A stretch of 64,000 bases of DNA from a virus (Duplodnaviria; Caudoviricetes): positions 32,001 to 96,000 of IMG/VR virus record IMGVR_UViG_2974736276_000001; one strand, 5' to 3'. The translations under genes were made by a program, and so were the position numbers. Below the pieces are notes generated by a model that had not been told where the DNA came from, ran no database searches, and was given only the letters and a program-made list of their open reading frames with translations. Shown here piece after piece: positions 29,968 to 40,172 of this stretch (positions are counted from its first letter, which is position 1; every line of letters starts with the position of its first letter).

Positions 29968-30033
29968 AATATTTTCCTATTTGTTTAAAGTGAGATCATT
30001 ATAAATCAGTTTAAAATTAAAGTACACTACTTT

Positions 30034-30311
30034 TCACATTCTTTGATAAATGCAAGATGTCAATAAATCAAATGCTAATGGGCACATATCCATCCACATT
30101 TTTACCTGGCGTTCTTCACAAGGTTCAATCTCTTCAGGCTTGAACTCTATCGCAGACATCAAACCATAAGGATCTGCGAACTGTGAATCTGTGCCGACAA
30201 TCAAATAAACGTCATTATATTTCAAAAGATACTTATGAACCGCCGCGACACCTTTAGTCTTGGAGACAGTACGATAAAAGATATGGGTGTCATTCATTTC
30301 TTCATCTTCAT
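30034..30311 (-). CDS. Hypothetical protein
   Basis: ORF; start probably at the ATGA overlap. Confidence 0.5.
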
Positions 30312-30526
30312 GCATCAGCTTTTTCCTTACGCAGATAAACCGTTTTGCCACCATTCCAGTAGCTATAAAGAACATCAGCACGAAGGTCTTTTTGTTCAAC
30401 TAGCCACGCAAGAATTTTTCCACTTGCGGCCTGTTCAATCACAAGAACCCGCAAGAATGCTTGATAATTTTCAGCAGTCAAAGTGAGTGTCAATCCGCTT
30501 GAGTATGCAAGAGTAAATTTAAACAT
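30308..30526 (-). CDS. Hypothetical protein
   Basis: Packed ORF. Confidence 0.55.
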   Translation of the reverse strand: MFKFTLAYSSGLTLTLTAENYQAFLRVLVIEQAASGKILAWLVEQKDLRADVLYSYWNGGKTVYLRKEKADA

Positions 30527-30918
30527 TATTCTTGGCCTTCATCAATCCAGTCATATTCATATGAAGTCACTTGAAGACCTTCAACGCGAGAATTCTTATA
30601 GATTGCAAAGTGATCGCATACATCACCATCACTGTTCAGATCGAGTTGAATCAGAACACTTTTAGAAGTACCATGACCTTTGCAGCCATGATGAGTCTGT
30701 ACTTCTTCAATCAGCTCTTCAAGAGCAGCTTTTGCAGCAAATGTCTTTTGTTGAAGAGAATCAGCATACATACTAAGAACACGTTGAATAGACAACTTAT
30801 CACCAACCAGATCAATTGTTACAACGTTATCAAACTGGCTGTAAATAGTGTAAGAAACAAAGTGATGCAAGTTCTTTTGCTGTTCAGCGTTCATTTTAAG
30901 TACTGTGCTAAATTTCAT
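30526..30918 (-). CDS. e.7/e.8-region hypothetical early protein
   Basis: GAGG RBS after the early promoter at about 30960-30995. Confidence 0.6.
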   Translation of the reverse strand: MKFSTVLKMNAEQQKNLHHFVSYTIYSQFDNVVTIDLVGDKLSIQRVLSMYADSLQQKTFAAKAALEELIEEVQTHHGCKGHGTSKSVLIQLDLNSDGDVCDHFAIYKNSRVEGLQVTSYEYDWIDEGQE

Positions 30919-30947
30919 TATGTTATCCTCAGATTTAGTCCGTTTGG

Positions 30948-30996
30948 ACTTGATGGAGCTATAGTACAACAAGTCATTTGGTCTGTACACTACTTT
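30948..30996 (-). promoter_or_regulatory. Early promoter
   Basis: AAAGTAGTGTACA...TACTAT AGCTCCATCAAGTC. Confidence 0.8.
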
Positions 30997-31055
30997 GTGA
31001 AAATTTTTCACTGGTCTAGAAACAGCAATGCCCAGAACAATGTCTGGGCAGTATC

Positions 31056-31316
31056 TTACGGTCGAATGATTTTCGCTAGTTCTTCCATGTGATGGCGAAC
31101 TTCTTTCTTGTGATCAGCATGGTCTTTAGAACCTTCGCCTTTTTTATCTTTAGCATCAGCATCTTTTAGAAGCTTGACGAGTTCATCACGTCGACCTTCT
31201 TTACCAGCTTTAGTTTCTGCTTTACTGAAGAATTTTACTGCTTCACCTACATCTTTAAACTCTGGTACGCGTTTAACGTCTTCTGACTCTGTTAAGAATT
31301 CTTTATATGTTTTCAT
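31056..31316 (-). CDS. Internal head protein (IP family)
   Basis: CTS MKTYKEFLTE; late promoter TATAAATA at 31346-31353. Confidence 0.85.
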   Translation of the reverse strand: MKTYKEFLTESEDVKRVPEFKDVGEAVKFFSKAETKAGKEGRRDELVKLLKDADAKDKKGEGSKDHADHKKEVRHHMEELAKIIRP

Positions 31317-31357
31317 TTAATTCACCGACTGTTGGAAGATATCGGTATTTATACTAC

Positions 31358-31382
31358 AAAGCCCAGAACAAAGTCTGGGCTT
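31358..31382 (-). terminator. Terminator hairpin (near-identical copy at 31030-31049)
   Basis: GCCCAGA CTTTGT TCTGGGC TTT. Confidence 0.75.
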
Positions 31383-31389
31383 AAAATCG

Positions 31390-31575
31390 ACAGCATCACG
31401 TACTGGCACATGACCTGCGAATATTCATTAACTCTAGCTCGGAGGCATCAGTCTCACCAGAGAAATATAGCGTGTACCGGAGATGCCTTACAGGGCAGAG
31501 CTTTTATGCCTAATCAAAGAACACTTTTCGGGACGAACCCGCCGACTATATACACGACTCAGTGATAGCAGCTGT
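31390..31575 (-). ncRNA. About 185-nt multibranch structured RNA
   Basis: Closing stem ACAGC/GCTGT plus ATCAC/GTGAT, three internal hairpins, possible pseudoknot. Confidence 0.6.
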
Positions 31576-31589
31576 AACCGCACATCAAA

Positions 31590-31805
31590 TTATAACAGAA
31601 TTGCTGGAGCAGGAGAAACTGGGAAAACCGGAGCATTCTTAATTTCATTAACTTTAGTATGAAGTTTATCAATCTTAACTTCAACTTTGTCTACTGCATC
31701 TTGCACAACTCTTTCAACTTTTCGGGTAGAACTATTACGAGTGACTAATGCACCGATAACAAACCCTATAACAAAAATAGCTACATGTAGCAAAAACGTT
31801 TCCAT
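31590..31805 (-). CDS. Small single-pass membrane protein, late-expressed
   Basis: N-terminal TM plus coiled coil; TATAAATA at 31830-31837 and RBS hairpin. Confidence 0.75.
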   Translation of the reverse strand: METFLLHVAIFVIGFVIGALVTRNSSTRKVERVVQDAVDKVEVKIDKLHTKVNEIKNAPVFPVSPAPAILL

Positions 31806-31886
31806 ATATCCTCCTGTATTTACAGGAAGTATTTATAGAGCACCCAGGTCAATGCTCAATCAGTGTAAAGCCTGGCGTTAAGAATT

Positions 31887-31961
31887 TGGAGCTGCCGATG
31901 GGAGTCGAACCCACGTCTACTGGGTGGAAGCCAGGGATAATAGCCACTATACGACGACAGC
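31887..31961 (-). tRNA. tRNA-Gly(TCC)
   Basis: Cloverleaf, loop CT-TCC-AC, GTTCGA, CCA. Confidence 0.92.
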
Positions 31962-32040
31962 AATTTAACGGTGTTTACTATCCGCAAAGCACCGGCAGAG
32001 ATATTCCCTTTATTTTAAGACTCTGGTTTCTCTGCTTTAC

Positions 32041-32244
32041 CTAGTCTATTACTAGGAAGAAGTCAATTGACCAGACATCATATGTGACATCATAAGCCCG
32101 ACTTTGTCCTTTGTAATAATTATAAATCTTATCTTCAGCTTGTTCTTCTGATTCAGCTTCTACTGAGACGAATTTTTCTTCAGTCTTATAATCATCGTCC
32201 ATATACTCTTGTTTACGGACTTTAATCTTAGCTTGATATTGCAT
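32041..32244 (-). CDS. Acidic hypothetical protein
   Basis: MQYQAKIKV..., GAGG RBS right after tRNA-Trp. Confidence 0.65.
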   Translation of the reverse strand: MQYQAKIKVRKQEYMDDDYKTEEKFVSVEAESEEQAEDKIYNYYKGQSRAYDVTYDVWSIDFFLVID

Positions 32245-32260
32245 AATTTCCTCACGAATT

Positions 32261-32334
32261 TGGCAGGCCCACAAGGATTCGAACCCTGGCTTCTGAGGTT
32301 GGAGCTCAGCGTACTACCACTATACGATAGACCT
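32261..32334 (-). tRNA. tRNA-Trp(CCA)
   Basis: CTGAG CT-CCA-AC CTCAG; CCA end. Confidence 0.93.
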
Positions 32335-32340
32335 AAAATT

Positions 32341-32416
32341 TGGTGCCTGCAGCAGGCTTCGAACCCACGACCCCTTCATTACAAGTGAAGTGCTCTACCA
32401 ACTGAGCTATACAGGC
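32341..32416 (-). tRNA. tRNA-Thr(TGT)
   Basis: CTTCA CT-TGT-AA TGAAG; CCA. Confidence 0.93.
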
Positions 32417-32420
32417 AAAT

Positions 32421-32496
32421 TGGTCAGGACAGCTGGACTCGAACCAGCGACCGACTGCTTAGAAGGCAGATGCTCTGTCCTCTGAGCTATGTCCCG
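32421..32496 (-). tRNA. tRNA-Arg(TCT)
   Basis: CTGC CT-TCT-AA GCAG; CCA. Confidence 0.93.
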
Positions 32497-32502
32497 AAGA
32501 AT

Positions 32503-32532
32503 TAATTATACTCTTTTATTTATAAAGCAATT
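32503..32532 (-). promoter_or_regulatory. Overlapping middle (MotA box plus TATAAT) and late (TATAAATA) promoters
   Basis: ATTGCTTTATAAATAAAAGAGTATAAT. Confidence 0.8.
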
Positions 32533-32911
32533 ATGGAACAAACACCCGACGGTGAGTAAGAGAGCCATAGTCATAGATGTAGCGATATTCAACTTCAAGA
32601 CCAGCAGCCTTTGCAGCTTCAATACCGTAATGCATGCCGCGAGTGATACCAAAATCAACATACACTACTGATCCATTTGCAACTTTCTTCCAGGCTAGTC
32701 CAGCATCGATACCCCATTGACGTTCAGAAGGAACATAGTCATTCAAGATTCCAGGCTGAGTGTAAAGCAAATGAGACGCAATTGGTGCTTCACCTTGGGA
32801 TAAAGAATGTCGTACACAGGCACGAGCATATTCAACATTCTGTTCTTCAGTACGAGAGATACCATTAAATTCGTATGGAGCAAAAGGAGATTCAAGGATT
32901 ACAAGTTTCAT
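32531..32911 (-). CDS. Nucleoside 2-deoxyribosyltransferase-like (DUF4406-type) protein
   Basis: VILESPF...GEAPIASHLLYTQ...ER..GI.AGLAW...GITRGM..GI. Confidence 0.65.
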   Translation of the reverse strand: MKLVILESPFAPYEFNGISRTEEQNVEYARACVRHSLSQGEAPIASHLLYTQPGILNDYVPSERQWGIDAGLAWKKVANGSVVYVDFGITRGMHYGIEAAKAAGLEVEYRYIYDYGSLTHRRVFVP

Positions 32912-33351
32912 AGCAATTCTCTTAATCGATAAAGCTGATTACAGAACTCTCGTTCAGTCAATACAGTCTCGTTGATTTTATTCTTACCCATTGAGTGAGT
33001 AAGCGTGGATTTATTTGTTGCTTTAAGAGCGCGTTTGAAACCATCATTTGTTCCAAGAGCATCAAATGCTTGTGTCAGCAATGTTTGATATGCTTCTGAA
33101 CTGCGCTGCATTGGAACGCCTTTCCAATACAATGTCTGGTCACGGAACCATTTCTTTTTCTTGCCTTTAAACTTAGCTGACTTACCAACTAAAGTACAAA
33201 CATGTGCTTGCACATCAGGATTGCTAAACTTCAGCGACTGGAGGAATCCTTCCATTGATGCACATTCAACACCATCAAAAGTGAATGGATGAGGAGCAAA
33301 ATTACTTAAAGCACATGAAGGATATGCACTACCTGAACCAATGTCCATCAT
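32908..33351 (-). CDS. NADAR-family protein, T4 gp30.3-like
   Basis: YPSCALSNFAPHPF.FDG...SMEGFLQSLK...TLYWKG...R.S..YQ. Confidence 0.85.
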   Translation of the reverse strand: MMDIGSGSAYPSCALSNFAPHPFTFDGVECASMEGFLQSLKFSNPDVQAHVCTLVGKSAKFKGKKKKWFRDQTLYWKGVPMQRSSEAYQTLLTQAFDALGTNDGFKRALKATNKSTLTHSMGKNKINETVLTEREFCNQLYRLRELL

Positions 33352-33566
33352 TCAGCACCATAAAATTCAGCAATGTCGTAAAAGTCTGTAATGATATTCT
33401 CAATTTCTTTTTCAAAATAAATTAGATGTGGAATGTAATTTATTGGTGCTAGATGATTAGCACATTGTAAACACTGATTACCTAATGCATCTTCATAAAT
33501 CACAGCCTTGGAATGGCCGCCTGATTTCCACTCGATAATAGCAAAACCTAAAGGATACTTTTTCAC
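33348..33566 (-). CDS. Hypothetical protein
   Basis: GTG start with GAGG RBS. Confidence 0.6.
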   Translation of the reverse strand: MKKYPLGFAIIEWKSGGHSKAVIYEDALGNQCLQCANHLAPINYIPHLIYFEKEIENIITDFYDIAEFYGAE

Positions 33567-33589
33567 AATGTTTTCCTCACAAGAATAAG

Positions 33590-33715
33590 TGTACCAGAGG
33601 GACTTGAACCCCCAAGATTGCAGCCTCTCGTCGGGTTACCTCTTACTCAGCTGGATGCTTAAACCAGCGTTTCAACAGAGTTCGCCAATGTGTCTACCGG
33701 TTTCACCATGGTACG
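33590..33715 (-). ncRNA. tRNA-like RNA with anticodon arm replaced by a multibranch domain of about 70 nt
   Basis: Acceptor GTACCA/TGGTAC, Leu-type D arm, T arm GGGGG TTCAAGT CCCTC, no CCA. Confidence 0.75.
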
Positions 33716-33787
33716 TGTCTGTGACATATCCGGAATGTCGGAATTAACATCTCACTCTCATATAGTCACATCTTTTACAGACTCTAG

Positions 33788-33854
33788 TGGAGATACCCGG
33801 AATTGAACCGAGGTCAGCGAATTTTGCGCCGTAATTGCACTATACTATATCCCC
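33788..33854 (-). ncRNA. 67-nt tRNA-Ala-like RNA with 3-bp anticodon stem
   Basis: GGGGATA/TATCTCC-A (G3:U70, A73), T arm, GCG CAAAATT CGC. Confidence 0.7.
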
Positions 33855-33859
33855 GAATT

Positions 33860-33934
33860 TGGTGGCCCTGGCAGGAATCGAACCTGCATCAAGCGATTAT
33901 GAGTCGCTAGCTTGAACCGTCCAGCTACAGGGCC
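33860..33934 (-). tRNA. tRNA-CAT, likely Ile2 (lysidine) or elongator Met
   Basis: GGCCCTG acceptor as in Ile2 tRNAs; CT-CAT-AA; CCA. Confidence 0.88.
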
Positions 33935-33942
33935 TAATCTTT

Positions 33943-34025
33943 AGTGCGTGCTCTATGCCAGGGTTACCCCTCGCTGGGACTCGAACCCATTAAACCGTAT
34001 TTCCTGAAGTCACTTTTCGGGCACT
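33943..34025 (-). ncRNA. T-loop-containing structured RNA
   Basis: AGTGC/GCACT closing stem; TGGG TTCGAGT CCCA; AGGG GTAA CCCT. Confidence 0.6.
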
Positions 34026-34179
34026 TAATTGATAACAGTGAGGGGTGATCAGTCCATCCTCGAGTAATGGGTTTCCTTAAAGTACTCCGCCGCTCGGTTA
34101 GTCTCGCACCTAGCTAAGATTGCTCTTAGGAGGCTCAGCTCTCGTCTCGCAGACATACACTGTTATCAATTAAATGCCC
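34019..34179 (-). ncRNA. About 160-nt RNA closed by a 22-bp stem
   Basis: GGGCATTTAATTGATAACAGTG / CACTGTTATCAATTAAGTGCCC with internal GNRA hairpins. Confidence 0.75.
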
Positions 34180-34240
34180 TCTTTCGAGGGCTTGCCTTTC
34201 GGCTACCTTGTCGGGCGTTTCCACCTGCTAGGCAAGTGTT
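34176..34240 (-). ncRNA. Small GNRA-rich RNA resembling the T4 p2 segment
   Basis: ACACTTGCCTAGCAGGTGGAAACGCCCGACAAGGTAGCCGAAAGGC followed by GCCCTC GAAA GAGGGC. Confidence 0.6.
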
Positions 34241-34257
34241 CTTTTACTTGATGGATT

Positions 34258-34325
34258 AATAATAACACTAATATTTTATAGCACTTATATGAAAAAGCCC
34301 CGTAACAGATTTCTCTGTCCAGGGC
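34258..34325 (-). promoter_or_regulatory. Terminator followed by a middle-type promoter
   Basis: GCCCTG...CGGGGC TTTTT then TGCTATA...TATTAT. Confidence 0.6.
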
Positions 34326-34330
34326 GTCAT

Positions 34331-34405
34331 TGGAGGCGGGAGAAGGAGTTGCACCTACGACCTCGAGGTTATGAGCCTCGCATTCTACTACTGAACTATC
34401 CCGCT
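34331..34405 (-). tRNA. Initiator-like tRNA-fMet(CAT)
   Basis: A1xC72 mismatch, GCGGG acceptor, CT-CAT-AA; atypical T loop TGCAACT. Confidence 0.8.
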
Positions 34406-34737
34406 ATTGAAGCATTTAAATTTTTATGAATTAATATTACACTAGATTCACTATATACACAATTCTGTAATGAAGTAATGCGCCAAGAACCAAACGGCAT
34501 TACTCTAAAACCTTCAGGTGTAAAACCTACTAATAGAGCTACTACTAAACTATTACCACGCGAAACACTTACTAAATCACCTGGTGAAACTTCTCTTTTA
34601 ATCTTATCCAAGCGAGATTCATTGGTTAAAGTTGCCAATGATTTTGGAATAACCAGAGCAGCATTTTCTAATACATCTTGAGCTTGTAGACCTTCATACT
34701 TATTGTAGAAATCTTTAGCTGATTTAGTAATTGACAT
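34396..34737 (-). CDS. Hypothetical protein
   Basis: MSITKSAKD...; stop overlaps the tRNA 5' end. Confidence 0.6.
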   Translation of the reverse strand: MSITKSAKDFYNKYEGLQAQDVLENAALVIPKSLATLTNESRLDKIKREVSPGDLVSVSRGNSLVVALLVGFTPEGFRVMPFGSWRITSLQNCVYSESSVILIHKNLNASIAG

Positions 34738-34754
34738 TGTATTTCTCTCATAAT

Positions 34755-34839
34755 TGGTACATCTGATGGGACTCGAACCCATAATCCTCTAGGGCGGGAG
34801 ATTTTAAGTCTCCTGTGTATTCCATTCCACCACAGATGC
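34755..34839 (-). tRNA. tRNA-Leu(TAA)
   Basis: GGAGA CT-TAA-AA TCTCC, long V arm, CCA. Confidence 0.93.
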
Positions 34840-34846
34840 ATTGAAT

Positions 34847-34921
34847 TGGTGGGGACCACTGGTAACGATCCAGTCTCTCAGGCTTTTCAGGCGAGCGCTA
34901 ATCCATCTCAGCTAGGACCCC
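34847..34921 (-). tRNA. tRNA-Phe(GAA), atypical
   Basis: CT-GAA-AA, CCA; two anticodon-stem mismatches, U5:U68, T loop ATCGTTA. Confidence 0.7.
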
Positions 34922-34927
34922 GTTAAA

Positions 34928-35173
34928 TTAAACTAAATGAAGCTCATTAGACATCCACAATTGAGCAAAACGTTCTGAAACTAAAGTAATTCTTGAAGGC
35001 GTTTTAACTCGAGTGCTTACATTTTCAATTTCAACACCGTGAGCATTTTTACCTAATACTTTACCAACTGTTACTTCACCCCAGTCACTCATACCTCGAG
35101 CTTTCAGTGGAGTAAGAACATAATCACCAATATAAACCGGTTTGTTGTACTTGTCTTGAATTACTGGTACCAT
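34928..35173 (-). CDS. Small KOW/SH3-like hypothetical protein
   Basis: DKYNKPVYIGDYV; GAGG RBS. Confidence 0.65.
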   Translation of the reverse strand: MVPVIQDKYNKPVYIGDYVLTPLKARGMSDWGEVTVGKVLGKNAHGVEIENVSTRVKTPSRITLVSERFAQLWMSNELHLV

Positions 35174-35192
35174 TATATTTTCCTCATTTAAT

Positions 35193-35269
35193 TGGTCTCA
35201 TACGCTATTACAATGCGCTCCGCACGGAAATGAGAAGTCGTAACTGCTCAGCACCTTATTAATATGAGA
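35193..35269 (-). ncRNA. 77-nt CCA-ended tRNA-sized RNA without canonical D/T loops
   Basis: TCTCATA/TATGAGA-CCA with three inner hairpins. Confidence 0.7.
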
Positions 35270-35274
35270 TTTTT

Positions 35275-35349
35275 TGGTACTCTTACCGGGAATCGAACCC
35301 GGATTTCAAGATTGAAAGTCTTGCGACCTAACCGTTAGTCGATAAGAGC
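35275..35349 (-). tRNA. tRNA-Glu(TTC)
   Basis: CAAGA CT-TTC-AA TCTTG; CCA. Confidence 0.93.
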
Positions 35350-35355
35350 ATTAAT

Positions 35356-35448
35356 TGGAGGAAGTGAAGGGATTCGAACCCTTGGGCCTGCTTTCACAGA
35401 CCGCCGGTTTTCAAGACCGGTGCAATAATCCATCTCTGCCACACTTCC
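35356..35448 (-). tRNA. tRNA-Ser(TGA)
   Basis: CCGGT CT-TGA-AA ACCGG, long V arm. Confidence 0.93.
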
Positions 35449-35453
35449 AAATT

Positions 35454-35540
35454 TGGTGGGGACGGTAGGACTCGAACCTACGAAGTCGCGATGACAGGAG
35501 GGTTACAGCCTCCACCCTTTGCCGCTCGGGTCACATCCCC
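35454..35540 (-). tRNA. tRNA-Tyr(GTA)
   Basis: GGAGG CT-GTA-AC CCTCC, V arm, CCA. Confidence 0.93.
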
Positions 35541-35543
35541 AAA

Positions 35544-35987
35544 TTATTTCTTATTACGATTTTTACCTGAATTAGTAGGGGTTAAAGCATGACAATTAGA
35601 ACAGAGAATTCGTAAATTCTCAAATTCATTATTATAATGTTCACCATCTATATGATCTAATTCTAATGGAGCAGGTTGTCCCATCCATTCAGTAATACCG
35701 CAAATTTCGCATTTTCTTTCTTTTAAACCTTCCTCAAATAAACGATTCTTTAATTTGAAGGAAGATATTGAACTATTTTTAAATAGAAAATCTTTAGCAC
35801 TTTTCTTTAAAGGAGAACCACATCCTTTAGAGCCAGGATTACCTGCATACACTATACCCCATTTACGCAATAATCGTTTAAGTGTATCATTATTACAGTT
35901 AAGTATAACACACATTTTACTAATTGACGTGTGTTTGCTTATTAATTCTAATATTTCTTCTTTTCTAGCTTCTACATCTTTTCTCAA
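35544..35987 (-). mobile_element. Free-standing HNH homing endonuclease gene between tRNAs
   Basis: CEICG...LELDHIDG...NN...NLRILCSNCH. Confidence 0.9.
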
Positions 35988-35989
35988 TT

Positions 35990-36077
35990 TGGTACCTCAG
36001 GGGAGACTCGAACTCCCAATTGCCTTTCGGACGCCAGGACCTAAACCTGGTGTGTCTGCCAATTCCACCACTAAGGC
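35990..36077 (-). tRNA. tRNA-Leu(TAG)
   Basis: CCAGG TT-TAG-GT CCTGG, V arm, CCA. Confidence 0.93.
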
Positions 36078-36154
36078 ATTACTAAGCATTTAAATGAATA
36101 GATCAATTAGCGATTAATCTATTGGTTTAACTGCTTGAGCTAGTTAAGTGTGTT

Positions 36155-36233
36155 TGGTGGAGAATAAGAGATTCGAACTCTTCTGATATCCTCGGTGCAA
36201 GCGAGGTGTCCACTCCAAGCAGACCCATTCCCC
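36155..36233 (-). tRNA. tRNA-Ala(TGC)
   Basis: G3:U70; CCTCG CT-TGC-AC CGAGG; G8 and 7-nt variable loop are atypical. Confidence 0.88.
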
Positions 36234-36415
36234 TAATTGTACATATTAAGAATAAACTTTTTTGTTGCTTTAATTGAACTGCAATCAATACTTTCAAAGC
36301 TTCCGAAAATATTAGTTTTAACATTACCATTCTGCTTTTTATTGATTCTCATTATTTTAGAATCAAATCTATAAACAGAAATTGTGCCATCAGATTCATC
36401 AACAAAGGTTATCAT
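36233..36415 (-). CDS. Hypothetical protein
   Basis: MITFVDESDG... ORF filling a tRNA spacer. Confidence 0.5.
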   Translation of the reverse strand: MITFVDESDGTISVYRFDSKIMRINKKQNGNVKTNIFGSFESIDCSSIKATKKFILNMYN

Positions 36416-36432
36416 GTTATTCTCATTTAAAT

Positions 36433-36510
36433 TGGTCGGAGCGGCAGGATTCGAACCTGCGACCCGAGACATCCAAAGTCCCTACGCTGACCAGACTGCG
36501 CTACGCTCCG
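36433..36510 (-). tRNA. tRNA-Pro(TGG)
   Basis: CGGAGCG acceptor; TT-TGG-AT; CCA. Confidence 0.93.
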
Positions 36511-36515
36511 AAATT

Positions 36516-36591
36516 TGGTGGGAGTAGCAAGATTCGAACTTGCGACCTACGAGTTATCGGCTCGGTGCTCTACCAGCTGAGCTATACTCCC
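36516..36591 (-). tRNA. tRNA-Ile(GAT)
   Basis: CGAG CC-GAT-AA CTCG (C33); CCA. Confidence 0.9.
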
Positions 36592-36657
36592 ATTCGAAGA
36601 AAACTTTTATCCATGCACGCATTAGATTTAAAGATTTACATCTTCTGAATATTTATT

Positions 36658-36733
36658 TGGTGCATCGTCATGGAGTCGAACCATGGACCTCGGGATTAAA
36701 AGTCCCTTGCTCTACCAGCTGAGCTAACGACGC
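36658..36733 (-). tRNA. tRNA-Lys(TTT)
   Basis: GGGA CT-TTT-AA TCCC; CCA. Confidence 0.93.
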
Positions 36734-36735
36734 AT

Positions 36736-37005
36736 TTACCAGATTATAGGTTTCCTGATATACGGATTATATTCAGGATCACGATAAATATTGTGTTTTA
36801 CAAGTTCATCATCAACTTGTTTATAGAATTCAAAATGAACACTATTAAATCCGCCTTGAAGACCAGCAAGTGTAATAGTTGTACTTGATTGACCCATACT
36901 AATACTATCTACGACAAGCATAGAATTTAATTCAAAATCTTCAACTTTCTTCTGATCATGTGCATAACCAGAAGTAGGAGATACAAATTTAGCATATAAC
37001 GTCAT
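36736..37005 (-). CDS. T4 trna.3-like hypothetical protein
   Basis: MTLYAK...GY..DQ...SS...FN.V.F.F. Confidence 0.65.
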   Translation of the reverse strand: MTLYAKFVSPTSGYAHDQKKVEDFELNSMLVVDSISMGQSSTTITLAGLQGGFNSVHFEFYKQVDDELVKHNIYRDPEYNPYIRKPIIW

Positions 37006-37020
37006 TTTAATTTCCTCATT

Positions 37021-37251
37021 AATAATCCGGGTTATAGAGATACAAATCGGTGTAACCATCTAGAACCATATTTCAGGGGAAGAAGAATTACTCAGGGTGA
37101 CCAGTTCCTTGCTAACCATTCTCTACAACAGTCTCTATTCGCTAACACAGACATCGTTGAGTAGGACTGTGCGCTCGATTATTACCGCCGGAAGAAGCCT
37201 CAATGTGCTGTTGCCGGTTAATCTTTCTCCTATCGAAGGAACGGAATTATT
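37021..37251 (-). ncRNA. About 230-nt structured RNA
   Basis: AATAATTCCG/CGGATTATT closing stem; inner CCGG/CCGG, ACAGTC/GACTGT, AGAAT/ATTCT stems. Confidence 0.6.
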
Positions 37252-37255
37252 TTTA

Positions 37256-37320
37256 TAATCAAAGGCCGATAGTTTAACTCGGCACCCTAACACCAAAGTG
37301 TCTCGCTTTTCATTTGATTA
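37256..37320 (-). ncRNA. 65-nt three-way-junction RNA
   Basis: TAATCAAA/TTTGATTA; GACAC TTTG GTGTT; GCCGA/TCGGC. Confidence 0.6.
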
Positions 37321-37323
37321 ATT

Positions 37324-37399
37324 TGGCGGACCTAACGGGATTCGAACCCGTGACGCTCCCGTGACAGGGGAGTATTTTAACCGCTGAAACTATAGGTCC
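37324..37399 (-). tRNA. tRNA-Asp(GTC)
   Basis: CTCCC CT-GTC-AC GGGAG; GCCA. Confidence 0.93.
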
Positions 37400-37403
37400 A
37401 AAT

Positions 37404-37485
37404 TGGCTGGGGTGGAGGGATTCGAACCCACATTGTCATAGACACGGATTAACAGTCCGCCGCCAAACCGTTTGGCTACACCCCA
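37404..37485 (-). tRNA. tRNA-Asn(GTT) with long variable arm
   Basis: GCGGA CT-GTT-AA TCCGT; V arm GTC TAT GAC. Confidence 0.9.
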
Positions 37486-37682
37486 GTAGAATGAACTCGA
37501 TGAATATCAGCAAGTTCATCAAAAATACTTTTTAGACAAGAGTGAACAAAAACTTTTTCACTTGCACTCATTGTACTATTATTTATAACGCGTTTCATAC
37601 GCTCTTTTAGCTTTTTCTTACGATTACGAACAGTATTTTCTTCTGCTCTTGGGTGCATCGCAAGACTACTCAACCTTTTCAC
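37476..37682 (-). CDS. Basic hypothetical protein
   Basis: ORF whose stop overlaps the tRNA-Asn 5' end. Confidence 0.5.
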   Translation of the reverse strand: MKRLSSLAMHPRAEENTVRNRKKKLKERMKRVINNSTMSASEKVFVHSCLKSIFDELADIHRVHSTGV

Positions 37683-37872
37683 CAGTCCAAACTTGGTTTA
37701 CTACACCTTGTAGACCGTGACTGAAATCAACATTCTGATAAATTTTATAACCAGCAAAACCTACACCAATCCAGAATACGAGTATAACTGCAAGCATAAT
37801 GCGCCATACCCAAACAATAAAAGAACGATTGCGGTTAAAACGTTTATTAAAATCAGAGTGATTTGAAATCAT
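37666..37872 (-). CDS. Membrane protein
   Basis: Single TM segment; follows promoters at 37900-37985. Confidence 0.65.
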   Translation of the reverse strand: MISNHSDFNKRFNRNRSFIVWVWRIMLAVILVFWIGVGFAGYKIYQNVDFSHGLQGVVNQVWTGEKVE

Positions 37873-37897
37873 AATGTTTATCTCATTTGTTGGTAGA

Positions 37898-37986
37898 AGT
37901 TAATAATATATCAGAATTCGTAAAGCATATTACTATTCTGTACTTGATAGAGATTATAACACACCTACAAGTAATGTACACTATTT
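37898..37986 (-). promoter_or_regulatory. Tandem early (GTGTACA...TATAAT) and middle (ATGCTTTA...TATTAT) promoters
   Basis: Motifs read on the minus strand. Confidence 0.7.
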
Positions 37987-38003
37987 TAGTAAAATAACTA
38001 AGC

Positions 38004-38102
38004 ACAGTAAGGAAGGACGCCACTAATACATTCCTTCATATCGTCACGGTCAGCGGCGATTATGTTCACTTGCGATGAACAAATTTTCCGTGGTCTTACT
38101 GT
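38004..38102 (-). ncRNA. About 100-nt pseudoknotted RNA
   Basis: ACAGTAAG/CTTACTGT closing stem; CACGG/CCGTG; GAAGGA/TCCTTC; CGCCGCTGA/TTAGTGGCG loop-loop pairing. Confidence 0.7.
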
Positions 38103-38104
38103 AA

Positions 38105-38177
38105 TCAAGGGCGAGAATCGAACTCGCAACCAGTCAGCCCGAAGCCTCCCACTCTACCTATTTGAGCTGTCACTTGA
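38105..38177 (-). pseudogene. tRNA-like RNA with intact D and T arms, collapsed anticodon stem, no CCA
   Basis: GCTC AAATAGGTA GAGT; GCGAG TTCGATT CTCGC; TCAAG/CTTGA. Confidence 0.7.
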
Positions 38178-38180
38178 ATT

Positions 38181-38246
38181 TGGCGGGCACTTTCCGCACT
38201 CCATCACGCGTTGGAAGCCAAGGAGTGTTATCGGCTAAGTAACCCA
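38181..38246 (-). ncRNA. 66-nt CCA-ended bulged hairpin RNA
   Basis: GGG.TACTT..CCG..CACTCC / GGAGTG CGG AAGTG CCC-GCCA. Confidence 0.7.
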
Positions 38247-38251
38247 TTGTC

Positions 38252-38342
38252 TGGCGGAAGAAGAGAGATTTGAACTCTCAAGGCATTTAAAATACTCAGC
38301 TCGTTTCCAACGAGTTTTCGTCACCAATCGATTTGTTCTTCC
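38252..38342 (-). tRNA. tRNA-Ser(GGA)
   Basis: CTCG TT-GGA-AA CGAG, long V arm, GCCA; atypical D arm. Confidence 0.85.
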
Positions 38343-38347
38343 AAATT

Positions 38348-38437
38348 TGGAGGAAGCGATGGGATTCGAACCCATGGACCCGTTTTCACGGGCCTCTTCC
38401 TTAGCAGGGAAGTGCAATTCCACTCTGCCACGCTTCC
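38348..38437 (-). tRNA. tRNA-Ser(GCT)
   Basis: CTTCC CT-GCT-AA GGAAG, long V arm. Confidence 0.93.
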
Positions 38438-38441
38438 TAAT

Positions 38442-38517
38442 TGGGGTGACCGACCGGGTACGATCCGGCAACATCCGCAATCACAGTGCGGGGTTCTACC
38501 AATTGAACTACGGCCAC
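38442..38517 (-). tRNA. tRNA-His(GTG)
   Basis: CCGCA CT-GTG-AT TGCGG; C73; T loop ATCGTAC; no genomic G-1. Confidence 0.9.
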
Positions 38518-38625
38518 ATCAATACTCACTCCACCAATCATGATGGCTTTAGGCAAATATTTCAGAGTAACCCGCGGTGGTTAACTTGTATCAAACCGAA
38601 ATATCGTATCAAGTAAGTATTGATG
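38518..38625 (-). ncRNA. About 108-nt RNA closed by a 14-16 bp stem
   Basis: CATCAATACTTACT/AGTGAGTATTGATG; inner ATATTTCGG/CTGAAATAT, TAACC/GGTTA, CCATCA/TGGTGG. Confidence 0.7.
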
Positions 38626-38741
38626 TGACAATAAGCATCCGTGCTCAATAGCCAAGAGTAAAATCGGGCATCATCCAGAACTTCATGTTCGTCGTGACGG
38701 CTTGTGAAACCTAATCACCAAAGGTGCTCTCACATAGGTTT
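38623..38741 (-). ncRNA. About 115-nt structured RNA
   Basis: AAACCTA/TAGGTTT, CACC/GGTG, AAGC-CGT/ACGG-GCTT, GAAC/GTTC. Confidence 0.5.
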
Positions 38742-38750
38742 TGTTCGTAT

Positions 38751-38847
38751 AGGTGATTAAAGATGGGGTCGAACCATCAACTCGTACGCTGCTCTTCCTG
38801 GCAGTGTGGTTGCTCCGCATGCACCATATTAAGTACGCATTTAATCA
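38751..38847 (-). ncRNA. tRNA-like RNA: acceptor plus T arm with a two-hairpin insert
   Basis: TGATTAAA/TTTAATCA; GATGG TTCGACC CCATC; CGTAC/GTACG. Confidence 0.75.
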
Positions 38848-38848
38848 T

Positions 38849-38923
38849 TGGCTGGGGTACCTGGATTCGAACCAGAGATGCCGATATCAAAGACCGGTGC
38901 CGTAACCACTTGGCTATACCCCA
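38849..38923 (-). tRNA. tRNA-Gln(TTG)
   Basis: U1-A72; CCGGT CT-TTG-AT ATCGG; GCCA. Confidence 0.93.
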
Positions 38924-38952
38924 ATTAAGACCGGATTCACCCGGTCAAGTAA

Positions 38953-39123
38953 TTATACTACAGTTGTTGCCCTACGTCCTGTGAATAGAGATACCAGGAA
39001 GATGATAATACCGACAACGAATACTAACTTAGCTGCCATTGCTGCTGTACCTGCCAATGCACCAAAACCAAGTGCTGCAGCGACCAGAGCGACAATTAGA
39101 AAAATAATACCGTAATGTAACAT
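38953..39123 (-). CDS. ytjA: YtjA/UPF0391 (DUF1328) small membrane protein, 56 aa
   Basis: Hand-translated [56 protein letters not shown]; GAGGT RBS. Confidence 0.9.
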
Positions 39124-39145
39124 ACTTACCTCACTTATTTAGTCC

Positions 39146-39252
39146 GGACGAGTGGAATCGAACCACCCTATCAACAAGTTAGCGCTTCCTGATATTTTAA
39201 GAAACCCAAGATACTAATCTGTCTTTGGAGAGATCGCTAAATCTCTTAGTCC
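39146..39252 (-). ncRNA. T-arm-containing RNA with three hairpins and a possible pseudoknot
   Basis: GGAC/GTCC; GGGTGG TTCGATT CCACTC; AGAGAT TTAGCG ATCTCT loop complementary to CGCTAA. Confidence 0.7.
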
Positions 39253-39301
39253 ATCGCGAGGTTTTCTCTTTGTTTCGACCAGTTTGATTGATTGGTAAGT
39301 T

Positions 39302-39333
39302 TATTTATATTACAATATTTTACTCAAAGCATT
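39302..39333 (-). promoter_or_regulatory. Middle plus late promoters heading the tRNA/ncRNA cluster
   Basis: ATGCTTTG...TAATATAAATA. Confidence 0.75.
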
Positions 39334-39602
39334 CTGAACAATTCACCTGATTTCCAGGCTTCAACAAATGCACCAGAGACTTTACGAATCTCTGAAGATT
39401 TAGGGCGAATATGTGTTCCCCAATTATAACTACCACAACTAGACACATGTTCTTTAATGGTAATCATACCTTTATAAAAATCTTTAATCTCAATAAAGAC
39501 AATCGGAGGACGAGATTCTTTAGAATTCGCCTTGTCGGTAATCATTATAATATCACCGACTTCTAGCACATTACCATACATATCAACAATTTGCTTTGAC
39601 AT
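39324..39602 (-). CDS. KOW/SH3-like hypothetical protein
   Basis: DMYGNVLEVGDII. Confidence 0.65.
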   Translation of the reverse strand: MSKQIVDMYGNVLEVGDIIMITDKANSKESRPPIVFIEIKDFYKGMITIKEHVSSCGSYNWGTHIRPKSSEIRKVSGAFVEAWKSGELFRML

Positions 39603-39987
39603 TTTTCAGCACCTCTAGAATAAAAGTACGTTGCTCATAACGATTAACAGATGGCAACATGTATACTTCTTGGTCTTCATTAATAAATGTTGGAGCAGGA
39701 ACCCATCCAAAGAATGGGAGAGCTAACATTGCTGCATGCACTTCATCATATTCTTTTTGAATCGCTGCAAGAATACCTTTGCGAGTCATGAACATTACAT
39801 CGTTCAGCTTAGTGCTATTGCGATTCTTAACGACTTTATAAAAACCATGTTCATTTTTATAAAATACGACAGCAGCGCTGAGCAATGCTTCCATATTTAC
39901 TTCAAGGCGATTATTAGTAAAAAAGATTTTGCCTTCAATGATAAAGTAAATTTCGTTGTTATGCATAAAGTCTTTCATCATATTCAT
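39583..39987 (-). CDS. Hypothetical protein
   Basis: Packed ORF. Confidence 0.55.
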   Translation of the reverse strand: MNMMKDFMHNNEIYFIIEGKIFFTNNRLEVNMEALLSAAVVFYKNEHGFYKVVKNRNSTKLNDVMFMTRKGILAAIQKEYDEVHAAMLALPFFGWVPAPTFINEDQEVYMLPSVNRYEQRTFILEVLKNVKANC

Positions 39988-40172
39988 TTCAAACTCTCTA
40001 CTGAACCATAATCTTCGATGCAATAACCATTATTGAATGAAACAATCTGATAAGTTTCATCCATAGTTTCAACAGCGGCTTCACGGGCAGCTTCAATTGA
40101 TTCAAAATCACCCTTACAATCGTTCATACCGCCTTGTGGATAGTATTGACTGAAGGTAAAAAGATAGTACAT
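39984..40172 (-). CDS. Hypothetical protein
   Basis: YYPQGGMND.KGDF motif; GGAG RBS. Confidence 0.65.
   Translation of the reverse strand: MYYLFTFSQYYPQGGMNDCKGDFESIEAAREAAVETMDETYQIVSFNNGYCIEDYGSVESLK

Follow-up and report, generated by a model that had tools for sequence, protein, structure and literature searches.

A putative structured RNA closed by a long A/U-rich clamp in the tRNA cluster of a T4-like Erwinia phage

The locus and its predicted transcription signals

The window analysed here, a stretch of 64,000 nucleotides, corresponds to bases 32001–96000 of a complete virus record of 175,774 bases. The phage is a T4-like Erwinia phage (Risoevirus/Roskildevirus) and the region of interest is its tRNA cluster, in which 21 tRNAs are found by Rfam over the window and 21 by ARAGORN within 30000–40000, all on the minus strand. 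The nearest named relatives are Erwinia phages FBB1 and IT22, the latter with 92% identity over the 571 bases of 33850–34420; both are Tevenvirinae, with the genus listed as Roskildevirus/Risoevirus. The element described below lies between two tRNA-Met genes, and the genes around it encode small phage proteins without assigned function, for example of the gp30.3 family and DUF7768. Two Rfam tRNA matches of the cluster (33788–33854 and 34850–34921, minus strand; 41.4 and 36.8 bits) are not called by ARAGORN and may be unusual or degenerate tRNAs. T-arm-like hairpins of the GGUUCGA type also occur without a full tRNA around them, at 33975–33989 and at about 38775–38790 (minus strand), and are probably remnants of decayed tRNA genes. 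The features that flank the element are, in the 5′ to 3′ order of the minus strand:

34331–34405, minus strand: upstream tRNA-Met, whose transcript is closed by the terminator that follows
34292–34325, minus strand: intrinsic terminator of the upstream tRNA-Met transcript, a long hairpin and a U5 run
34259–34283, minus strand: MotA-type middle-promoter-like site, TGCTATA (34283–34277), 12 bases, then TATTAT (34264–34259)
34188–34240, minus strand: 'postC' block of 53 bases, found by blastn between the promoter and the element
34176–34191, minus strand: H0, a GC-rich hairpin GCCCUC-GAAA-GAGGGC followed by AUUUAAUU, with a terminator-like flag and a fold of −12.7 kcal/mol
33935–34018, minus strand: lineage-specific spacer of 84 bases from the clamp to tRNA-Met, in the window and IT22
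33860–33934, minus strand: tRNA-Met(CAU), the first tRNA downstream of the element, on the same strand

The element has three full homologues, in IT22 (L001), in FBB1 (L002) and in a metagenome contig of 1,167 bases (L200). The terminator hairpin (−18.3 kcal/mol, z −5.1) has counterparts in IT22 (−16.2 kcal/mol) and FBB1 (−19.5 kcal/mol), in which the changed positions are still paired. In T4, a middle promoter consists of a MotA box near −30 followed, after 11–13 bases, by a −10 hexamer; the MotA box of the window departs from the consensus at one position. Box, spacing and −10 hexamer recur in all four sequences as TGCT(A/G/T)TA-N12-TATTAT, the box being TGCTGTA in IT22, TGCTTTA in FBB1 and TGCTGTA in L200, and MotA itself is encoded in the genome (MotA_activ, 121.7 bits). 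A terminator and a MotA-type promoter were both part of the original prediction; folding and conservation bear out the terminator and a promoter-like site of MotA type. The predicted transcription start lies near 34252, and no terminator-like site was found between the element and the tRNA-Met at 33860–33934.

The terminator and promoter together (34259–34325, minus strand) recur at 83–86% identity in Karamvirus phages (L127, 1201–1258), and in VPA32 they precede a small ORF in place of the element. The pair looks like a portable regulatory cassette. FBB1 has, between the upstream tRNA-Met and the element, a gene (L002, 1747–1983) with the annotation major outer membrane lipoprotein Lpp; in the window and IT22, nothing but the promoter and postC occupies this interval. 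The postC block is a homologue of the sequence directly 3′ of rnaC in T4 and in Mosigvirus phages (82% identity to T4 and 87% to RPN187 by blastn, over 55 columns); here it is detached from rnaC. It is present in IT22 and missing in FBB1 and L200. H0 is found in the window, IT22 and L200, with none in FBB1. In L200 it reads GCUCUC-AGUG-AGAGC at the same place, with one C-G to U-A compensatory change relative to the window. It overlaps the clamp by four bases, its own last ones and the first ones of the 5′ arm. H0 may act as a weak terminator or protect the 5′ end, and together with AUUUAAUU it could stop many transcripts before the element.

Homologues, clamp stem and core

The homologues in IT22 and FBB1 were found by blastn among 50,697 phage records. 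Searched with the window form of the element, 555 of these records match and IT22 alone covers the element; matches in the other records fall on tRNA-Met, on postC or on the terminator-promoter cassette. With the FBB1 form, two records matched. The four sequences form two pairs, the window with IT22 and FBB1 with L200. Part of the stretch is also present in 20 public DNA runs from 13 studies, with no RNA run listed among them; variants were taken from four of the 20 runs, over the covered parts only, and all four carry partial variants. In IMG/VR, pattern scans gave no match to a 22-mer, two matches to a 17-mer, both by chance and without further similarity, and at least 117 stretches with a 15-mer of the clamp arm, and none of the 119 pattern-scan loci (L008–L126) holds both arms. 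A pattern scan of the GTDB prokaryote genomes returned nothing. A covariance model trained on three sequences (R1) was run over 78 sources (the window, L001–L004, L127 and 72 T4-like IMG/VR loci picked via their gp30.3 neighbour), where it recovered only the training sequences and their reverse strands, plus two matches with E > 1 that overlap tRNA-Arg genes. Over five whole phage genomes it recovered IT22 and FBB1 (2/5), with none in the three further T4-like genomes. Judged from these sequence searches, the element family is real but narrow. No description of the element was found in the main texts of the literature searched, and titles and abstracts on Erwinia phage Cronus mention nothing on RNAs.

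The element itself is made up of the following parts, again in the 5′ to 3′ order of the minus strand:

34158–34179, minus strand: 5′ arm of the clamp stem P1 (fold, inverted-repeat listing and pair comparison)
34144–34154, minus strand: junction hairpin GUC-UGCGA-GAC after P1, in the window/IT22 subfamily only
34100–34140, minus strand: P2, a long imperfect hairpin (folds and base-strand comparison)
34058–34096, minus strand: P3, a hypervariable arm with CGAG...CUCG around about 27 bases in the window (homologues and runs)
34040–34061, minus strand: P4, GAGG-AU-GG, loop ACUGAUCA, CCCCUC (predicted fold and homologues)
34019–34040, minus strand: 3′ arm of P1 (fold, inverted-repeat listing and pair comparison)

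On the minus strand, P1 consists of 22 standard pairs, 21 Watson–Crick and one U.G. On the plus strand the U.G column becomes a C.A mismatch, precisely as the original prediction had it for a 22-bp stem at 34019–34179. When the stem is read on the plus strand, there is one non-pair in the window and there are two in IT22. Since wobble pairs occur only on the minus strand and all 21 tRNAs are there, the minus-strand orientation that had been proposed is supported. Of the 18 long-range inverted-repeat pairs listed for the 64-kb window, P1 is the longest with high identity (22 nt, 95%), and its arms are 117 bases apart. The arm sequence matches twice in the window, both times at the element, which is single-copy in the 175,774-base genome. 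An antisense RNA to the phage's own genome was rejected: beyond the locus, no shared or complementary word exceeds 12 bases, a length close to that expected by chance.

The 181-nt stretch folds at −59.1 kcal/mol on the minus strand (z −4.17) and at −65.1 kcal/mol on the plus strand (z −4.89), in both cases better than 200 of 200 shuffles. This stability signal comes from the clamp; the 117-nt core by itself is no more stable than its shuffles (window, z +1.48; IT22, −0.46; FBB1, −0.71). The fold ensembles are diffuse, with a frequency of 0.003 for the minimum-free-energy structure. The RNA had been described as GC-rich, which applies only relative to the genome (G+C of 0.52 for the core versus 0.384).

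P1 is 22 bp long in the window and IT22 and 19 bp long in FBB1 and L200. Over the 19 common pairs, three columns vary among the four full sequences and all three remain paired (G-C to A-U, U.G to U-A and A-U to G.U; one compensatory and two wobble changes). In the four metagenome runs, the sole change in P1 among the rows listed is the same A-to-G, giving G.U, in runs X5 and X7. The clamp thus appears, from these pairing-preserving changes, to be selected as RNA; the independent events are few, coming from four full sequences in two close pairs.

Three parts are kept in all homologues: the clamp P1, the base of P2 and the P4 hairpin. MAFFT leaves the 5′ half of the core unaligned between the two subfamilies and missed the register of the P2 base, the pairing of which was set by eye against the fold and checked by string extraction. 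The conserved P2 base is formed by AGCUGAGCC and GGUGCGAGACU, and its strands are nearly alike in all four sequences (AGCU.A.CC with GGU...AG.CU). They differ by a compensatory change (G-C to A-U) and a wobble change, and the window form also has an A.G mismatch. At the tip of P2, the window has CUAAGA-GCAA-UCUUAG, whereas FBB1 and L200 have a longer hairpin of unrelated sequence. The GUC-UGCGA-GAC hairpin is missing from FBB1 and L200; its sole listed change (34150, in runs X9 and X11) sits in the loop. The original prediction had named CTAAGA GCAA TCTTAG and GCGA loops; the CUAAGA-GCAA-UCUUAG and GUC-UGCGA-GAC hairpins are indeed present, in regions where the homologues diverge.

P3 is the most fluid part. 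The window, FBB1 and L200 have in common a 35-base arm closed by CGAG/CUCG, and IT22 has a different hairpin of 20 bases (CAUACA..UGUAUG). Of the differences listed for the four runs, the interval 34062–34096 accounts for 32 of 40 substitution rows and for 9 of 12 indel rows, and the flanks are almost constant. The P3 variants of these runs, as rebuilt by a script that may have left them incomplete, fold as further hairpins of two more types. P3 is a hairpin in every case, with unrelated sequences (a window/FBB1/L200 type, an IT22 type and the two read-derived types), and hairpin exchange at the P2 tip and P3 occurs even among near-identical phages. It should be noted that the P2 tip and P3 may vary simply from lack of constraint. 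The AGUA...GAA segment likened to a loop E lies in this hypervariable arm and is not conserved, being absent from IT22, FBB1 and L200. Of the 'ornate core' there remain the P2 base, a short junction and P4, the rest being replaced. As to whether homologues retain nothing but the outer stem, the outcome is in between, with about half of the core kept.

P4 is directly 5′ of the 3′ arm of the clamp, the last C of P4 being the first base of that arm. Its stems are identical in all four full sequences; in the 8-base loop, IT22 has a C-to-U change, and the four runs show the same loop change and one inserted A only. P4 and the 16S rRNA have some sequence in common: GATCACC and most of the five bases after it occur both in the P4 loop and 3′ strand (34040–34053, minus strand) and at the 3′ end of the 16S rRNA of E. 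coli K-12 (L211, 84–113), and the opposite P4 strand starts with GAGG, which resembles a ribosome-binding site. The likeness to the 16S rRNA tail may be chance (a rough estimate is about 1 in 20).

These patterns bear on two other accounts of the locus. A chance hairpin with decayed-tRNA debris in a fast-changing cluster, devoid of function, would fit the tRNA remnants (33975–33989 and about 38775–38790) and the thermodynamically ordinary core, and we regard it as very unlikely: P1 is the best inverted repeat in 64 kb, the element is kept across differing flanks, the three variable pairs are maintained and P4 is invariant over eight variants. The second account is a small protein encoded by a 35-codon frame at 34049–34156 on the minus strand, the longest one there. 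This frame is open in the window, and the arm swap of IT22 alters its length by 15 bases and leaves it in frame. Yet no ribosome-binding site is seen, the start codon is 2 bases from the 22-bp stem, FBB1 and L200 have unrelated frames of 12 and 11 codons there, and the 35-codon frame has no Pfam or PHROG match, which makes a protein highly improbable.

We may also wonder whether the element is a module of DNA, bounded by inverted repeats and shuffled by recombination, or the scar of a mobile element, its RNA fold being incidental. The similarity to FBB1, to a contig of run X5 and to contigs of run X11 ends near the repeat ends (about 34024–34025), the flanks are mosaic (lpp upstream in FBB1; postC and the tRNA remnant only in the window and IT22) and the terminator-promoter cassette recurs elsewhere. 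However, the element is present as a single copy in each of three genomes (the window's, IT22 and FBB1), no direct repeat is seen at its ends, there are no matches in IMG/VR or GTDB genomes, and the two single changes in the repeat produce G.U pairs, of benefit only to a minus-strand RNA. A DNA-level module is therefore very unlikely. A MITE-like or multi-copy mobile element was discarded, with one copy per genome in the three genomes and no direct repeat at the ends.

Comparison with known and neighbouring RNAs

Searched at the gathering score against Rfam 15 (including GOLLD, ROOL, Y RNA-like RNAs, ribozymes and riboswitches), the window gives 21 matches, all of them tRNA. In E-value mode over 33500–34500, nothing credible covers the element (RsmY with 14.1 bits for a gathering score of 57; isrB with 16.3 for 35). 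The resemblance to a retron-type ncRNA suggested in the original prediction, with the clamp as the a1/a2 repeats, did not survive. Like a retron msr-msd ncRNA, the element has inverted repeats that flank a structured segment of about 120 bases, a feature which is not retron-specific, but no PF00078 (RVT_1) reverse transcriptase is found anywhere in the 175,774-base genome, in a search whose control was positive in 3 of 14 genomes, and no Rfam model match is seen. The chance that the element is a retron RNA is negligible.

The tRNA cluster of T4 encodes two stable RNAs, RNAC (species 1, rnaC) and RNAD (species 2, rnaD), which were described decades ago and the roles of which are given as not known in the accounts available to us (PMC3014915, PMC9697503), a 2010 review among them (PMC3014915). 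The element resembles them as a non-tRNA structured RNA of 120–160 bases, on the tRNA strand of a T4-type cluster. RNAC and RNAD likewise adjoin tRNAs whose processing would free them. In RNAD, the 5′ and 3′ parts pair in the minimum-free-energy fold and the middle is replaced between T4 and RPN187, as in the element. There is no sequence or model similarity between either RNA and the element. For rnaC this was judged with a covariance model (R2) built on 14 homologues, with 37 pairs, 21 of which show compensatory changes. Its best match in the window is a true rnaC homologue at 39142–39283 on the minus strand (54.3 bits, E 7e-12). Around the element, R2 scores nothing but the spacer's T-arm (33975–33989; 6.9 bits, E 7.8). 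Homology to rnaC of the clamp with its T-arm spacer was rejected with R2. For rnaD, only two homologues are available, so similarity was judged by sequence search without a model; blastn and blastn-short with T4 rnaD against the genome and the collected loci found only T4 and RPN187. Just upstream of the rnaC homologue at 39142–39283 there is a late-promoter-like TATAAATA box, with no rnaD homologue beside it. RNAC here is thus behind a late-type TATAAATA box, whereas the element is behind a MotA-type box.

RNAC is tRNA-shaped, with acceptor and T arms, and the element is not: when a tRNA-like acceptor stem and T arm were looked for at the element ends, the fold left the candidate acceptor strands unpaired. 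A T-arm-like hairpin is seen beyond the clamp in the window and IT22, and neither FBB1 nor L200 has it. In the spacer, the T-arm alone scores (9.6 bits with the tmRNA model, 6.9 bits with the rnaC model) and ARAGORN finds no tRNA at 33935–34018, and the spacer is probably a decayed tRNA. A pseudo-tRNA with the element inserted into it was rejected, ARAGORN and the models detecting the T-arm alone.

A second clamped RNA is encoded in the same cluster:

38515–38632, minus strand: second clamped RNA, from tRNA-Gln to tRNA-His, with a 17–18-bp A/U-rich stem, about 80 bases inside and a z of −4.25

Its 3′ arm overlaps the first three bases of tRNA-His. Its arms and a CCA/UGG hairpin with the loop UCAUGAU are kept, with compensatory changes, in IT22, Serratia phage LC53 and Karamvirus phages. 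It is present in 19 phage records with Enterobacter, Salmonella, Serratia, Proteus and Erwinia phage names, from at least four named genera; no description of an RNA at 38515–38632 was found. The two RNAs both have an A/U-rich clamp of 17–22 bp, a 3′ arm that meets the first bases of a tRNA, a small conserved hairpin with a UGAU-containing loop just 5′ of the 3′ arm and a partly exchangeable core. They have no alignable similarity, and unlike the element the second RNA is far more widespread, lies between two tRNAs and is not behind a promoter.

The stems processed by RNase III in rRNA operons and phage early transcripts are long-range duplexes formed by the flanks of the RNA to be released. 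The clamp resembles them as a duplex of about two helical turns and differs in that the enclosed RNA is small and half variable and cleavage here is putative.

Proposed release from the tRNA precursor and possible roles

The clamp's 3′ arm runs into tRNA-Met in FBB1 and L200, its final base being base 1 of the tRNA, and a contig of run X5 has the same direct junction. With this arrangement, RNase P should free the RNA by cutting at the clamp foot. The spacer missing from FBB1, L200 and the X5 contig holds, in addition to the T-arm-like hairpin (33975–33989), a GUAA-loop hairpin (33957–33974). With these 84 bases from clamp to tRNA in the window, RNase P would not cut at the clamp foot there. 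RNase III needs an uninterrupted duplex of about 20 bp or more, and the uninterrupted P1 duplex of 19–22 bp is of that length.

These features could be accounted for by a leader of the tRNA precursor that acts purely in cis, the clamp serving as a site for RNase III or as a helix that protects the ends, to insulate or time the maturation of tRNA-Met, and the freed piece having no function. The position of the element 5′ of tRNA-Met in all four full sequences is consistent with such a leader, as are the length of the duplex, close to what RNase III needs, the second clamp directly 5′ of tRNA-His and the exchangeability of much of the core. On the other hand, a simple clamp would need neither an invariant P4 nor a conserved P2 base and junction, the 84-base spacer separates the clamp from the tRNA in the window and IT22, and the flank past the clamp in run X11 is unlike that of the window. 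We consider a purely cis-acting leader a minority possibility, doubtful and still to be taken seriously.

A selected structured RNA released from the tRNA precursor is, on balance, somewhat probable, as the conservation of clamp, P2 base and P4 suggests. The best reading of the comparisons is that the element would be a small RNA or leader comparable in kind to RNAC and RNAD of T4, new and narrow in its distribution. Its transcription, processing, stability and action in trans are what we infer for such an RNA. The minus strand would be transcribed from the element's own predicted MotA-type middle promoter, together with the following tRNA-Met. The predicted fold is a junction closed by the A/U-rich clamp of 19–22 bp (P1) and enclosing P2, P3 and P4, in which P2 would combine a conserved base with a free tip, P3 would be freely exchangeable and P4, beside the 3′ arm, would be invariant. 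Cleavage by RNase P at the 5′ end of the downstream tRNA would free the RNA, and the clamp, with H0 in some members, would hide both ends and yield a long-lived RNA. RNase III may trim the clamp.

How a released RNA of this kind would act is a matter for speculation. It might be a trans-acting scaffold, in which the clamp, the P2 base and P4 would dock a protein or the ribosome, and P3 and the P2 tip would serve as decoys or confer specificity, with a turnover driven by conflict with factors of the host or of rival phages; we regard this as unlikely. In one form of the scaffold reading, P4, in which a Shine-Dalgarno-like strand is paired with the strand that copies, along with the loop, the 16S rRNA tail, would mimic the mRNA-docking duplex of the ribosome.

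Within its tRNA cluster, one T4-like phage thus appears to encode three or more structured RNAs that are unrelated to each other: rnaC, the RNA clamped at tRNA-His and the element. If the scaffold or ribosome-mimic reading were true, it would provide a first function for the RNAs of T4-type tRNA clusters. A rigid scaffold with exchanged hairpins, for which natural swap variants exist and a map of kept and exchangeable parts is at hand, would be a compact system in which to ask what such RNAs do. If the element is a processing leader only, it would still be useful for annotating phage tRNA operons correctly.
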